Source: an uncultured Gammaproteobacteria bacterium
Lineage (GTDB): Bacteria > Patescibacteriota > Patescibacteriia > UBA1558 > GWA2-36-10
NCBI GenBank assembly: GCA_964633905.1
Contig: CAZWIT010000001.1
Coordinates: 141,861 to 205,860, forward strand
Length of the DNA: 64,000 nucleotides
Direction: 5' to 3'
Shown here: positions 23,306-63,309 of the stretch, in pieces
Layout: every line of letters starts with the position of its first letter
Numbering within the stretch: position 1 is the first letter of the stretch
Notes under the pieces: generated by a model
The model's database searches: none
The model's input: the letters and a program-made list of their open reading frames with translations, nothing else
Told to the model about the DNA's origin: nothing
Position numbers and translations under genes: made by a program

Positions 23306-23698
23306 ATGGCAAATAAAGTTATACACTTTGAGGTGCAGGCCGATGATGTAGCTCGCGCTAAAAAGTTTTATGAGCAAGCCTTTGGCTGGAAAGTAGAGCC
23401 ACTAATGACTAAAGAGCAGGGGGCTAATATGGATTATTGGGGTTTAGAAACTGGTCCTAAAAATGAACCGGGTATTTCCGGTGGCTTATATCAGCGTCCT
23501 CAAGCTAATGCTATTCACACTTTTGATTGCACAATTTTGGTAGAAGATATTGATAAATCGATAGCAGCAGTCAAAGCTAGTGGCGGGCAGATCACTAGAG
23601 ATAAAGAAGAGTTAAAGGGCGTGGGTTGGTTTGCTAGCGCTTTAGATACGGAGGGTAATAGATTTGCTATGATGCAGGCTACTGATTGGCAACCTTAA
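23306..23698 (+). CDS. VOC (glyoxalase/bleomycin-resistance fold) family protein
   Basis: 130 aa; typical VOC length and betaalphabetabetabeta motif pattern (VIHFEV..., FGW). Confidence 0.65.
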   Translation: MANKVIHFEVQADDVARAKKFYEQAFGWKVEPLMTKEQGANMDYWGLETGPKNEPGISGGLYQRPQANAIHTFDCTILVEDIDKSIAAVKASGGQITRDKEELKGVGWFASALDTEGNRFAMMQATDWQP

Positions 23699-23720
23699 AA
23701 TAAAAATTTAAATTTATAAA

Positions 23721-23750
23721 AAAGGACCGCGTCAAACGCGGTCTTTATAT
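23721..23750. terminator. bidirectional terminator
   Basis: ggaccgcgtcaaacgcggtc hairpin flanked by A/T runs between convergent genes. Confidence 0.5.
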
Positions 23751-23770
23751 TGGCAAAGTAAAGTTTAAGT

Positions 23771-24310
23771 CTAAACTCGACGTTCGGTTTTAAAAACCGG
23801 CTGGCCAACTTGGGGTAGCGGCAATTTCCAGGTCCAAAAAGTAGCATTGGTCAAAGAGCTTATGGTGTGGCGCAAATTAGGATCGCTGATATGCATTGAC
23901 TTAGGTATCAAAGTATCACCAATGCCAAAGAAAAATTCCGAGCGCATCATTTCATATACTTCTTCAACGGTCAGGTCAGGATGCTCAATAAAGAGCAGGC
24001 GGCCAGTATTTACTAGCGTGACTTCCAGGCAAGTGTCCTGGTGATTGTGAAATTCTTGTACTAAGCCAGCAGGCAATTCTGTAAACACAGCTTCAAATTG
24101 AGGATTGAGATGATTTTCGCCCAAACTAAATCTTTTGAAATAATAGCGGATTTCCATATTAGGTAGCTTTTTAGCTTGTTCGATTTGTTTAAGAGCGCTA
24201 CTGTCATCGGCAGTTAGGCGAATAAAACGATCGATTGATTCGATGGGGAGATTGTGATTGGTGATTGACCAGCCACTTGGTGGCTCGGTAAACAGGGTCG
24301 AATAGCCCAC
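23771..24310 (-). CDS. hypothetical protein
   Basis: 179-aa minus-strand ORF; no confident domain. Confidence 0.5.
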   Translation of the reverse strand: MGYSTLFTEPPSGWSITNHNLPIESIDRFIRLTADDSSALKQIEQAKKLPNMEIRYYFKRFSLGENHLNPQFEAVFTELPAGLVQEFHNHQDTCLEVTLVNTGRLLFIEHPDLTVEEVYEMMRSEFFFGIGDTLIPKSMHISDPNLRHTISSLTNATFWTWKLPLPQVGQPVFKTERRV

Positions 24311-24403
24311 TTTTGTCTCCTGGGTTAAGGGTGAAAGGTACGGACTTTAGTCCTTAAATTATAATAAATAAAGGCTATTGTCAATTATTGTTGTTTTTTA
24401 TCA

Positions 24404-24432
24404 TTGACAATTTATCTATTATATGCTATAAT
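24404..24432 (+). promoter_or_regulatory. consensus sigma70-type promoter TTGACA-N17-TATAAT
   Basis: TTGACA at 24404-24409, 17-nt spacer, TATAAT at 24427-24432. Confidence 0.5.
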
Positions 24433-24477
24433 AATAAGTATCAGTAGTGTTCTTCCCTCTAAACGAAGGAGCTAGTC

Positions 24478-24684
24478 ATGTCGCGTTTGACTTATGTCCT
24501 GACCGAGCCCTTGTGCCTGGTTTGCCGGACGGCGGCTCTGACCATCTACACACGCGAGGCCTACGCCCAGGAGATGGAGCGGTGTAGCTCGCTTGAGCGT
24601 CGCCGTTTCGAAGAGAGCATGGTCGGCGGCACCATCATTGGCCTGCTGGCCATCGCGGTCCATACCATCGTCAAGACTTTCTAG
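24478..24684 (+). CDS. small protein (68 aa) with C-terminal TM helix, GC-rich (about 58%)
   Basis: AAGGAG SD 7 nt upstream of ATG; own promoter and terminator; composition strongly deviates from flanks. Confidence 0.4.
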   Translation: MSRLTYVLTEPLCLVCRTAALTIYTREAYAQEMERCSSLERRRFEESMVGGTIIGLLAIAVHTIVKTF

Positions 24685-24714
24685 TTGCCCACGTGGCAAC
24701 AGAAGTCGCAAGTA

Positions 24715-24763
24715 AGCCCCGGGTTTTTCCGCAAGGAGATCCTGGGGCTGATTTTTTTATTTT
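24715..24763 (+). terminator. intrinsic terminator
   Basis: agccccgggtttttccgcaaggagatcctggggct hairpin followed by TTTTTTTATTTT. Confidence 0.6.
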
Positions 24764-24866
24764 AAAATTGCTTAGGCAAGTTGACAAATATTATTTTATC
24801 AGGCTAAATTAATTAGCTCTTTTCGTTTTAATTTGATCAATCAATTCCCCGCCAAAGGAGAAGCTT

Positions 24867-25157
24867 GTGCAACAAGCAGAAATCAAGAGTCTCTTAATTG
24901 AGTTAGCTCAAGATGACTGTTCTTTTGCGCGTCATCAAGAAGTTTCTCAGTTGTTTTATGCTGCTGCTCAGCGTCGGCCAGCACCTGACTCTACTACTGA
25001 TGATACTAGTATGTTATTTACAGCCATGCTCAATAAACTTTTGCGGATTGTGAATAAGAAACATTTGCCGGGCTTATTTCCGGTTTTTGCTATGTTGTGT
25101 GGCGATCGTTATGATTTTATTGGTTTTGCTGAAATTGACTGGGATTTGATGTCTTAG
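24867..25157 (+). CDS. hypothetical small protein (96 aa, GTG start)
   Basis: AAGGAGA SD before GTG; upstream TTGACA-N17-CTAAAT promoter (24781-24809); followed by terminator. Confidence 0.4.
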   Translation: MQQAEIKSLLIELAQDDCSFARHQEVSQLFYAAAQRRPAPDSTTDDTSMLFTAMLNKLLRIVNKKHLPGLFPVFAMLCGDRYDFIGFAEIDWDLMS

Positions 25158-25305: not shown

Positions 25306-25938
25306 ATGAACGCTGCCTTTTTTGGAGTTTTAATGCTTCTTTTAATTGCGGTAGTATTTTACGTATGGGTTTCTAATATAAATTATAAAACTCGTAAAGA
25401 ACAAGATAGGCTGGAAGCACTTGATGCTATTGAGAGAGTAGAGACAGAGAGTCCTGAATATATATTGACTCATAAGCCAAGTCCTTATCAGATTGAAGTT
25501 ATTCTTAGTTCTAATCCAAATTACCACATTGAACAGATGGCTATTAAAGCAGCTTTGGCTAGCAGAAATATTATTTCTTTATCTTTAGTAGATAAGTATG
25601 CGCCACGGTATAGCGAGCAAGCAAGTCGTGCTCACTGGGATATTATATTTGCTAAAGCCAATACTATTGCTGAATGCGAGCAGTTACTTAGAGAACATAG
25701 GCATGATTGTAGTGATTGGTGTTTAGCTTGGAAAGCTAAACTTGAACAGAAAATTAAGCAAGCTAGACAGCTTGAGAAGAAAGTAGCTTTCTTGAATCAA
25801 GCGAGGGCAGCTGGTATAGAAGTGTGTTCTATTTGTGACACAGTAGATCCCACAAGATGCGATGATTGTAACTGTTGTATTTCAGGCAAAAGAGGTTGTT
25901 CGCATAGCTTTGGTGGGCTATGTGAGGACTGTAAATAG
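25306..25938 (+). CDS. membrane-anchored protein with C-terminal 8-Cys domain (paralog A)
   Basis: 210 aa; AAGGGGG SD; N-terminal TM; C-terminus CSICDTVDPTRCDDCNCCISGKRGCSHSFGGLCEDCK. Confidence 0.6.
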   Translation: MNAAFFGVLMLLLIAVVFYVWVSNINYKTRKEQDRLEALDAIERVETESPEYILTHKPSPYQIEVILSSNPNYHIEQMAIKAALASRNIISLSLVDKYAPRYSEQASRAHWDIIFAKANTIAECEQLLREHRHDCSDWCLAWKAKLEQKIKQARQLEKKVAFLNQARAAGIEVCSICDTVDPTRCDDCNCCISGKRGCSHSFGGLCEDCK

Positions 25939-26070: not shown

Positions 26071-26769
26071 TTAATCATAATAAAGATAGTAACAACTATA
26101 ACATTCCCCATCATAATCAGAACAGTCGCCATTACCAGAAATACAAGTATGATCACTGCATTTACATCTTCTAGGTTCAATGGTCTTACATTTCCAACAA
26201 ACATCTTGTCCAGCGGCTTCAGCTTGTTCTAGTTGGGCTTGACGTATTGCATTGGCAGCTTGTCTTTCGCGCGCTTCAATAATTGGTAAAGCTCTAGCTT
26301 CCAATTTAGGCTTCCAAGTGTGCCACCATTTACCATGGCTAGATGTAGTATCATTATCCCAAACACTATTTTTCCTTAGAGTAACTTCACACTCTTCATC
26401 TGGGATTTTGCTCATTATTATATCCATGATAGCAAAGTAAGCGCGTTCCTTATCTATTGTGCTAATAAAATTAAACCTATCAAGTACAGATATAGTATAA
26501 ATGCTACCGCTTTTTAGTGCAGCGTCAATAGCCATTTGTCTGATTTTTGGATCATGATTTTCATTTAAAATATTTGCTATTTGTCCATAACCAGGATCAT
26601 GACTAAGGATATATTCAGGGGTTTGGCGCCTAGCTCTTTCTTCATCTCTGGCTTTTTGTTCAGCTTCGATTTTACGATATTCTGCATCTTTTTTTTCATT
26701 TTCTTCTAAATTTTGTATAAAAAATATACATAACAATACTACTATCAAAATGATTCCTAGGCCTATCAT
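26071..26769 (-). CDS. membrane-anchored protein with C-terminal 8-Cys domain (paralog B)
   Basis: 232 aa; AAAGGAGG SD; shares PEYIL(S/T)H, QMAI.AAL and the CxxCxT.xPxRCxxC...CISGxxxCS Cys pattern with paralog A. Confidence 0.6.
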   Translation of the reverse strand: MIGLGIILIVVLLCIFFIQNLEENEKKDAEYRKIEAEQKARDEERARRQTPEYILSHDPGYGQIANILNENHDPKIRQMAIDAALKSGSIYTISVLDRFNFISTIDKERAYFAIMDIIMSKIPDEECEVTLRKNSVWDNDTTSSHGKWWHTWKPKLEARALPIIEARERQAANAIRQAQLEQAEAAGQDVCWKCKTIEPRRCKCSDHTCISGNGDCSDYDGECYSCYYLYYD

Positions 26770-54164: not shown

Positions 54165-54193
54165 TTGACATTTTATCATTTTTTTGTTATAGT
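54165..54193 (+). promoter_or_regulatory. consensus promoter TTGACA-N17-TATAGT driving element R1
   Basis: TTGACA 54165-54170, TATAGT 54188-54193. Confidence 0.5.
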
Positions 54194-54199
54194 CCTATA

Positions 54200-54550
54200 T
54201 CAGTACATTAAATCGGAGGGCTCCCTATGGGACCATGGAATAAAGGGCAGCCTTCTGCTCAATATGTCCTGGCTCTAATGAGCCCTCCTGCAAGCGCGGC
54301 CTAGAGAAGCATATCGCTTTTCGGCCGCAAGAGGCGACGCATCGTCGCCTGTGGCACTCTGCCACCGCTTCTTCGGTAAGCGAGAGACTGAAGCGTATAG
54401 CACCCCGTAGGAGAAGTTCCTGGTGAGGATTACCAGGACTGACCGCGTGCGGTGAGGTAGCCAACGATAAGGGCCGAAGGTGGGGACATGACTAAGGTTG
54501 AAGTAAGGACTAACACTTACTAGACTAAAAGTTTCTCCCCACTTTTTTAT
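54200..54550 (+). ncRNA. unclassified GC-rich structured RNA R1 (about 350 nt)
   Basis: At least 7 perfect hairpins (for example GGCGACGcatCGTCGCC, GTGGCActcTGCCAC, CCTGGTgaggattACCAGG); long-range GGAGGGCTC/GAGCCCTCC pairing; promoter plus terminal GGGGA...TCCCC-TTTTTT; GC far above flanks. Confidence 0.45.
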
Positions 54551-58654: not shown

Positions 58655-59085
58655 CAAAAAGAAAAAGCCTCACCAATGGTAAGGCTTTCCGGGCTGGCTT
58701 ATACCTGTGTGGGACCATGTTGTCATAGTCCACAAAAAATTACACAAGTTGGGGAGCCCGTTCTGCGCTAGCGCGTCTGTACCCCGTAGGACGCTCTAGT
58801 TCTGAGGTCTGACCTCAGAAGTGGTGGAGGTTGCCAGGATAAGTCCTGTGTAAGCTGCAGTTTGCAGGTAGCGTTCAACGCTTGTGGCGGAACGACCAGT
58901 CCCTACGAACCAGCGGCTGCTAGCCAAGTTAACTCGAGGCCTTCGAGTCACTTGAGATACCTTTGTTTTGGGTATCCGCAATGTCCAGGTTAGCGCTAAC
59001 CTGAATATCGCAACAAGCAGTTGTCCACAGAGCTTATTAAGCCCCAGCAACCCCCGTCTATTCGATGAACTTTTACGATTTTGTA
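58655..59085. ncRNA. unclassified GC-rich structured RNA R2 (about 400 nt), homologous to R1; strand unresolved
   Basis: Shares TGGGACCATG, ACCCCGTAGGA, GTGGTGGAGG/GGTGAGG and GCCA..GATAAG with R1 in plus orientation; the intervening hairpin covaries. Yet promoter TTGACA-N18-TAGAAT and terminator are on the minus strand. Confidence 0.4.
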
Positions 59086-59192
59086 TTCTAGCATATAATA
59101 AAAAATTTGTCAAGGGTATGGTTATGAGTTTATTTTTAGGCTTGAAATATATAGTTTTTTTAGGTATCATTAAATCATGATTTTTTAATTTT

Positions 59193-63056: not shown

Positions 63057-63085
63057 TTGACAGTTTTATTATTTTAGTTTATAAT
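63057..63085 (+). promoter_or_regulatory. perfect consensus promoter TTGACA-N17-TATAAT
   Basis: TTGACA 63057-63062, TATAAT 63080-63085. Confidence 0.55.
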
Positions 63086-63091
63086 AGCAAT

Positions 63092-63309
63092 TAATATTTG
63101 TTCTATAAGCTTGTCCCTTTGGCAGGTAGAATTGGACCTCCACCTGTCTAGGGGCGAGGCTGACTGCGGGCATTCGTAACATTATGCTCAAGGTCAGCTG
63201 AAGGCCGTACGCAAGAGAATAGGGTTGTGGCTCTCTCCTCCCAACCCAATCTCCGCACCAAAGCTTACGGTTCTTCGGGAGCTCTCGCCAAGAGAGCTCT
63301 TTTTATTTG
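63092..63309 (+). ncRNA. candidate small RNA R4 (about 215 nt), GC-rich, 5'/3' ends pair (rod-like), intrinsic terminator
   Basis: CTTTGG...AGAATTGG pairs with CCAATCT...CCAAAG; internal GCTGAC...GTCAGC hairpin; terminator gagctctcgccaagagagctc-TTTTTATTT. Confidence 0.4.

Follow-up and report, generated by a model that had tools for sequence, protein, structure and literature searches.

The 64,000-nucleotide stretch of DNA analyzed here (referred to below as the window; contig CAZWIT010000001.1, positions 141,861 to 205,860, from an uncultured bacterium assigned by GTDB to the Patescibacteriota) probably carries, at positions 24404-24758, a self-contained cassette for the expression of a hitherto unannotated protein of 68 amino acids (aa), which would be anchored in the membrane via its C-terminal helix. 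Judged from the substitutions among its relatives, the open reading frame (ORF) at 24478-24684, called the microgene here, is a protein-coding gene under purifying selection at the protein level. The same comparison indicates that the RNA itself is also under selection, its synonymous sites being confined to G, C, or U to the exclusion of A despite the A/T bias of the host. On balance, we favor a small membrane-protein gene whose mRNA has been selected to be G+C rich and compactly folded. Three other explanations, a toxin-antitoxin locus, a dual-function RNA, and an unselected foreign origin, all ranked below this one. The elements of the cassette and its surroundings are as follows.

24379-24403, no strand assigned: conserved A/T-rich block 5' of the -35 element, containing TTGTCAAT
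24404-24432, plus strand: sigma-70 promoter TTGACA-N17-TATAAT, a 12/12 match with a TG-extended -10 element
about 24439-24440, plus strand: transcription start predicted from the promoter
24449-24457, plus strand: pyrimidine-rich leader motif GTTCTTCCC, invariant across the six of six loci with a 5' untranslated region (UTR)
24466-24471, plus strand: Shine-Dalgarno (SD) sequence AAGGAG, with a spacing of 6 nt to the ATG
24478-24684, plus strand: ORF of 68 codons, MSRLTYVLTEPLCLVCRTAALTIYTREAYAQEMERCSSLERRRFEESMVGGTIIGLLAIAVHTIVKTF, with the stop codon UAG at 24682-24684
24678-24705, plus strand: two-tier hairpin with the last sense codon and the UAG stop inside the outer stem
24715-24758, plus strand: intrinsic terminator, a long G+C-rich stem (24715-24749) with an internal loop, followed by GAUUUUUUU
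24752-24758, plus strand: U7 run of the terminator
24472-24711, minus strand: open frame of 79 aa, a composition artifact outside the functional unit

Seven protein homologues of the peptide (P0001 to P0007), 46 to 81% identical, were found, six of them 68 aa and one 71 aa long, and all came from metagenome or SRA assemblies. DNA was available for six distinct copies (L001, L002, L004, L005, which equals L006, L007, which equals L008 and L009 in the ORF, and L010). Substitutions at codon positions 1, 2, and 3 numbered 9, 8, and 24 between the window and L001 and 10, 11, and 22 between the window and L002. Over all pairs, the synonymous fraction was 0.41 in the annotated frame versus 0.09 to 0.32 in the other five frames, and the annotated frame also had the most conservative replacements of the six and no stops in six sequences. 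The ratio of nonsynonymous to synonymous substitution rates (dN/dS, by NG86) ranged from 0.20 to 0.62. The sole length changes, +12 nt (4 codons) and -3 nt (1 codon), both occur in L004 and are both in frame; the ORF has 71 codons in one of the eight family members and 68 in each of the others. In addition, none of the seven DNA copies (the window and the six others) departs from AGGAG, the ATG, or the TAG stop, and similarity drops off directly past the stop codon in some pairs. With this codon-position pattern, in-frame indels, dN/dS below 1, and conserved start and stop, the first-pass annotation, made from the letters of the window, was right to propose a small membrane-protein gene among its candidates.

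The frame on the opposite strand, which had been suspected of being a by-product of high G+C content, behaves as one. It runs codon for codon antiparallel to the coding frame and is kept open by the absence of the codons TTA, CTA, and TCA from the latter; its synonymous fraction is 0.17, and most changes fall at its first codon position, so the 79-aa ORF was rejected as an overlapping gene. Hairpin-promoted read-through of the UAG was likewise rejected, by eye, since the downstream in-frame sequence is unconserved between the 3' UTR types.

Base composition sets the microgene apart from the rest of the window. The G+C content is 0.60 in the ORF and 0.339 in the window. From the ATG to the terminator it is 0.58, which agrees with the value of about 58% given originally, whereas the interval 24404-24770, for which that value had been given, has a G+C content of 0.51 because the AT-rich promoter and leader are included. 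The G+C content at third codon positions (GC3) is 0.79 in the ORF, versus 0.243 ± 0.045 (maximum, 0.425) in 45 large ORFs of the window, which places it about 12 standard deviations off, and the index of adaptation to host usage is 0.275, versus 0.664 ± 0.028 for the host. The codon usage of the microgene is the inverse of that of its host, and the comparison of G+C content and codon usage suggested at the outset upholds the contrast. Across the seven copies, the G+C content of the microgene is 0.58 to 0.64 and the GC3 is 0.75 to 0.88, on contigs of 31 to 43% G+C; neighboring genes have a GC3 of 0.26 to 0.43, so that the microgene alone is GC rich.

This composition has been kept through considerable divergence. 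The synonymous divergence (dS) of the microgene ranges from 0.2 to 0.9, with GC3 kept at about 0.8; in the same genome pairs, dS was 0.68, 0.90, and 0.54 for the microgene versus 0.95, 1.23, and 0.87 for the adjacent 96-aa gene. At four-fold degenerate sites, 40 to 48% of positions differ between the window and its relatives, and the changes are nearly all C/T, G/T, or C/G. At third codon positions, the copies have 0 to 3% A and 12 to 22% T, versus 30% A and 46% T in the host. Neutral decay from G+C to A+T should lift A and T alike, and A alone stays low, so decay without selection is disfavored. Base pairing would account for such a pattern, since a G-C pair can turn into G-U and not into A-C, and many G-C/G-U alternations are present in the predicted helices. 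A C-to-U change would keep a pair as G-U and a G-to-A change would break it, so that U would be tolerated and A excluded.

Folding of the coding region is consistent with this explanation. When synonymous codons were permuted, the native order folded better in seven of seven copies (z of -1.4 to -3.0); the same permutation on 34 host gene segments gave a mean z of -0.25 with a standard deviation of 1.06. Minimum-free-energy folds pair about 65% of the coding nucleotides, with energies of -0.40 to -0.45 kcal/mol per nt, and the fold of the whole transcript has a z of -2.9. In the 3' UTR of six loci, the hairpin over the stop codon and the terminator share one shape (z of -4.9 to -7.9; in the window, the two together fold at -37 kcal/mol with a z of -4.9). 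The stop-codon hairpin presents a single architecture in four sequences (UUGCC.., CUCAGGC.., CAGUC.., and UUGCCAAGG..), and the terminator shows compensatory changes, with five of the nine pairs of helix 12 altered on both sides. The suggestion that the locus might be a structured RNA that merely carries an ORF therefore stands in one half, as the synonymous sites and the 3' UTR appear to be under selection for structure, but is contradicted in the other by the coding signal.

Taken as a mechanism, these features would describe a transcript that has evolved into an mRNA that is abundant, folds compactly, and is probably long lived. Its SD-AUG region would be left open, allowing ribosomes to load, and elongation would then pass through stable structure written in the rarest codons of the host. 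The purpose may be longevity of the transcript, control of elongation, or both, and the product would be a small, steadily made membrane protein belonging to an accessory gene islet.

Several points weigh against this reading. Rare codons oppose a high protein output, and an abundant protein and a throttled translation are indistinguishable here. The seven sequences are few and related, their z-scores are not independent, and the P values of single copies in the permutation reach only 0.0025 to 0.08. The covariance analysis proposed in the first-pass annotation gave a mixed result. In an RNAalifold consensus with 90.9% of positions paired, 16 pairs were changed on both sides, versus 6.4 ± 1.8 in shuffles and 3 to 5 in slid controls, but the consensus fold came from the same alignment as the pair counts, which makes this small-sample comparison circular and supporting evidence only; the covariation term of RNAalifold amounts to a small -0.77 kcal/mol. 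The promoter, the transcription start, and the stability and translation of the mRNA are predictions from sequence. The peptide matches no known family or structure, and its predicted model is of low confidence (see below). The composition could also owe something to an ancient transfer from a GC-rich donor and incomplete amelioration since then, as the Arg/Lys ratio is 7.5 in the peptide versus 0.43 in the host and the first and second codon positions (GC1 and GC2) are likewise shifted toward G+C.

The signals around the ORF would be those of a strongly expressed unit. The 68-aa ORF with its C-terminal transmembrane (TM) helix, the perfect promoter, the AAGGAG, and the strong terminator were all recovered where they had originally been placed. 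Perfect TTGACA-N17-TATAAT promoters number two in the 64-kb window, versus 0.08 expected, and a 12/12 promoter lies at an equal distance from the ATG in six of the six homologous loci with upstream DNA. Farther upstream, the block GGCTATTGTCAATTATTG...TTATTTACTA is kept in the window, L001, L002, and L007 and partly in L004 and L005. The TTGTCAAT within the A/T-rich block would form, on the minus strand, the -35 element of the divergent promoter of a 179-aa gene, and the block may act as an UP-like element for the promoter of the microgene. The leader motif GTTCTTCCC occurs a single time in the window. It can pair weakly with the SD (UUCUUC with GAAGGA), in a local hairpin of -6 to -11 kcal/mol with a z near 0, and an anti-SD role was not borne out because this hairpin is weak. 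The terminator does not appear in a simple pattern scan because of the internal loop in its stem. The predicted transcript is about 320 nt long (24439-24758) and would consist of a 39-nt leader, the 207-nt ORF, and a 73-nt 3' UTR.

The cassette recurs with 100% identity in two independent Logan assemblies (L011, 2445-3000, and L012, 2445-3000) of this organism, which indicates that it is not an assembly artifact. The gene caller made no call at the cassette in either assembly and left a 556-nt "intergenic" gap, so the seven homologues retrieved from protein databases are a lower bound.

The predicted protein comprises a moderately hydrophobic helix (residues 1 to 25), a charged Arg-rich segment that is its most variable part (residues 26 to 48), and the C-terminal TM helix (residues 49 to 68, GGTIIGLLAIAVHTIVKTF), in which LLAIAVHTIV is nearly invariant. 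The Kyte-Doolittle maximum over 15 residues, 2.15, falls in the strongly hydrophobic C-terminal segment of about 20 residues; by hydropathy, the N-terminal helix is fully hydrophobic in P0005 only. An AF2 model built from the eight-sequence alignment has helices at residues 3 to 23, 26 to 35, and 39 to 67, with low confidence (pLDDT of 65), insufficient for a useful fold search. A zinc-binding CxxC was rejected because the Cys residues are unconserved in P0004, P0005, and P0007, and a lipoprotein or signal peptide was rejected by eye on the peptide sequence, which has no lipobox. The protein would most likely be a membrane-acting effector or modulator, and a toxin-like role is possible.

The family appears to be narrowly distributed. 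A search for further copies had been proposed at the outset; it yielded the seven metagenomic homologues but none in 185,579 GTDB genomes, and the copy number in the window is one. A HMMER scan of 1.84 billion representative proteins returned two clusters only. No relatives were found in a scan of IMG/VR, and blastn against plasmids (PLSDB) and phages (INPHARED) gave no match. One metagenome match (L003) was spurious, being an unrelated GC-rich membrane protein in which the common part is RRRFEESM. Pfam, NCBIfam, PHROGs, and PADLOC gave no match for the peptide or for the neighboring products of 179, 96, 93, 125, 133, and 175 aa, and a PDB profile search with the peptide returned noise only. 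Rfam 15 gave no match at the gathering score on the window and, at E values up to 10 on 24300-24900, noise only.

Among the alternatives, the one that survives best, although unlikely, is a type I toxin-antitoxin-like locus, in which a membrane toxin would be produced from a stable mRNA curbed by an antisense RNA, started, for example, just 3' of the terminator and overlapping the 3' end of the mRNA, as is the case for txpA/RatA or bsrG/SR4. The small hydrophobic product, the highly structured, self-contained, and presumably strongly transcribed cassette, and its position in an accessory islet missing from some relatives would suit such a locus. Weak promoter-like sites are also present on the minus strand 3' of the terminator (TTGTCA-17-TAAAAT in the window, 10/12; L002 and L010, 9/12). 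However, no antisense promoter keeps its position or its quality across the loci, and these sites are by-products of the near-palindromic TTGACAA forming the -35 element of the next gene, with 4.6 expected per 2 kb of such AT-rich DNA. The SD and AUG are not specially sequestered, unlike those of hok or aapA1. Their probability of being unpaired is 0.31 to 0.64, which is not below that of the synonymous permutations, and with the weak leader hairpin this leaves an inert mRNA of the hok or aapA1 kind unsupported. A hok-like 5'-3' occlusion of the SD in the RNAalifold consensus (ACGA..GG with CC.UCGU near the 3' end of the ORF) was rejected, as its pairs never vary and the accessibility test was unsupportive. 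At 68 aa, the peptide exceeds almost all type I toxins, which are usually under 60 aa, and its TM helix is C-terminal; the 68- to 71-aa peptides of the family match no known toxin family. Finally, there is one copy only in the 64-kb window, and no complementarity of at least 12 nt to a candidate RNA was found elsewhere in the window, where chance matches fall in coding genes and terminators only.

Quite unlikely, too, is a dual-function RNA, in which the transcript of about 320 nt would act mainly as an abundant structured regulatory or scaffold RNA and would also encode the peptide. Its synonymous sites are constrained, and some stretches, CTGCTGGCCATCG among them, do not vary in six of the seven copies even at synonymous positions, with one synonymous change in L010. 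The transcript outwardly resembles ORF-less GC-rich RNA candidates of this genome in having a consensus promoter, a GC-rich body, and a terminator, and one of these candidates lies behind the only other perfect promoter of the window. Against this, no target or seed region was identified, Rfam gave no match, and the 3' UTR occurs in unrelated sequence versions, which makes a conserved pairing site in that region less likely. The signal for structure is moderate and could be due to mRNA stability alone. By an extension that we regard as doubtful, the A-free sites would be kept for a job of the RNA itself, that of a nuclease-resistant riboregulator or scaffold that is at once the messenger of the peptide, and the microgene would represent a new dual-function family in an uncultivated AT-rich lineage. 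In a still more speculative variant, the codon usage would be matched to a GC-rich partner organism and not to the genome that carries the gene.

Three ORF-less candidates were noted. At 63057-63305 (plus strand), the other perfect promoter of the window (63057-63085) precedes a GC-rich RNA of about 210 nt with a terminator at 63278-63305; it folds at -86.9 kcal/mol (z of -5.5), has no Rfam match at the gathering score, with no E-value search run there, and is perhaps a new RNA or a divergent one of the 6S or SRP type. At 54165-54550 (plus strand), a GC-rich island of about 350 nt (G+C content up to 0.60) lies behind TTGACA-N17-TATAGT (54165-54193) and ends near GUGGGGA...UCCCCAC and a U run; it has no credible ORF by eye and no Rfam match at E values up to 1, and it is a candidate structured RNA of unknown kind. 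The third, at 58660-59113 (minus strand, about 420 nt), has the promoter TTGACA-17-TAGAAT with a TG (59113 to 59085) and a terminator with a 13-bp stem (58690 to 58662); it gave no Rfam match at E values up to 1 and no tmRNA by ARAGORN. Read on the plus strand, it has the motif ACCCCGTAGGA in common with the 54.2-kb island, and pairwise alignment of the two revealed no overall similarity.

Very unlikely is a compositional relic, that is, a gene from a GC-rich donor that has not yet ameliorated and is under no selection for composition or structure. The G+C shift of GC1, GC2, and the amino acids is what such an origin would leave, the region from 23.3 to 25.2 kb is slightly GC enriched, and the gene lies in an accessory islet. 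However, no homologue was found in a GC-rich context in the 1.84 billion representative proteins, the GTDB genomes, IMG/VR, plasmids, or phages, and all copies sit behind the same AT-rich promoter on AT-rich contigs. Synonymous divergence has reached 0.9 and almost half of the four-fold sites have changed, yet A has stayed nearly absent at third positions and T has not, and the native codon order outfolds its permutations. Horizontal acquisition, which the first-pass annotation had considered, is not borne out in its simple form. Recent transfer does not by itself account for the G+C content of a gene that belongs to a syntenic block, has diverged about as far as its neighbors, and has kept its GC3 when theirs is low, with no relative in a GC-rich genome, plasmid, or phage.

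A purely noncoding structured RNA with an ORF open by chance (about 13% per frame at such a composition) is effectively excluded on these alignments, for although high G+C content keeps frames open, the antisense frame included, and the transcript folds stably, the substitutions have a period of 3, the synonymous fraction is highest in the coding frame, indels are in frame, and the SD-ATG spacing and the stop are kept.

The microgene is found in variable company. In the window, L001, L002, L007, and the P0003 contig, the neighbor on the 5' side is a divergently oriented orphan gene of about 180 aa, which is truncated in L007 and runs off the contig end in L001. On the 3' side in L002, L005, and L007 are orphan 93-aa and/or 96-aa genes with their own TTGACAAATATT promoters, and in the window the 96-aa gene only; L005 and L004 have other neighbors. 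In L013 (282-423), the 179-aa gene directly adjoins an S66-peptidase-like gene, which was recognized by eye because its product resembles the S66 peptidase of L007 at the N terminus, and in L007 (173-1500) the microgene and the 93-aa and 96-aa genes, each with its own promoter, sit between the same two genes. This presence and absence indicates that the three genes form an accessory islet.

Some further observations concern the surroundings. At 23306-25157, the flanking genes have the highest GC3 values among the window ORFs, with 0.425 in the 179-aa gene (the top value for the 45 large ORFs), 0.34 in a glyoxalase-family gene, and 0.32 in the 96-aa gene, and the 2-kb neighborhood is mildly GC enriched. 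In L002 (1505-1550) and L010 (297-355), the terminator and the next promoter are separated by a short insertion, GTCATTCC...hairpin...CTAGCTAG, which is absent from the other loci and may be a miniature repeat element. At 25306-25938 (plus strand) and 26071-26769 (minus strand) are two convergent paralogous genes (34% identity; E value of 9e-31), both with an N-terminal TM anchor and a Cys-rich C terminus (CxxC...CxxC...C) and without a Pfam family. A similarly Cys-rich 125-aa gene is located 3' of the microgene in L005.

Gene finders trained on the codon usage of the host miss a gene of this kind, which implies that such families are undercounted in protein catalogs. GC-rich "intergenic" islands of AT-rich genomes are therefore worth checking for coding capacity, in addition to RNA structure. 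The microgene would also offer a natural example of sustained selection at synonymous sites that could be used to study trade-offs among mRNA structure, stability, and rare codons in a bacterium with a small genome. If the peptide were a toxin or the RNA a regulator, it would represent a new family in a poorly known lineage.

Several known systems resemble the microgene in part. In type I toxin mRNAs (hok/Sok, aapA1/IsoA1, txpA/RatA, and bsrG/SR4), as would be the case for the microgene, a hydrophobic peptide of small size and membrane location is encoded by a highly folded, autonomous mRNA that is strongly transcribed and has a stabilizing 3' structure, and these loci are also accessory. For the microgene, however, neither a conserved antisense RNA gene or promoter nor special sequestration of the SD and AUG was found, and it differs in the length of its product, the C-terminal instead of N-terminal position of the TM helix, and the lack of similarity to known toxin families. 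Dual-function RNAs (SgrS/SgrT, RNAIII/delta-hemolysin, SR1/SR1P, and AzuCR/AzuC) are structured, abundant transcripts of a few hundred nucleotides that encode a small, often membrane-associated peptide, and the RNA-level constraint beyond coding that is expected of them was found in the microgene. It differs in that no base-pairing target or seed was identified and in that the ORF fills most of the transcript.

The lpp mRNA of Escherichia coli, about 322 nt long, has a strong promoter and many hairpins, is unusually stable, and encodes a 78-aa envelope protein. Its layout is close to that of the microgene, for which the predicted transcript is about 320 nt long, the promoter is predicted to be very strong, the secondary structure is extensive by prediction, and the product is small and putatively envelope associated. 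However, lpp uses the codons preferred by its host and the microgene the rarest ones, there is no homology, and the microgene product has no lipobox or signal peptide.

In AT-rich bacterial genomes, the approach based on GC-rich intergenic regions (GC-IGRs) has yielded structured RNAs as well as unannotated small ORFs (Stav et al. 2019, PMC6429828). Like those small ORFs, the microgene lies in a long GC-rich "intergenic" region of an AT-rich genome and is an unannotated peptide ORF with a ribosome-binding site and a terminator. It differs from them in that the ORF itself holds the G+C excess, conserved across diverged homologues, and in the evidence for structure within the coding region. The best-supported interpretation is that the microgene represents a new lineage-restricted family of small membrane proteins with an odd codon signature, within a kind of system that is not itself new.

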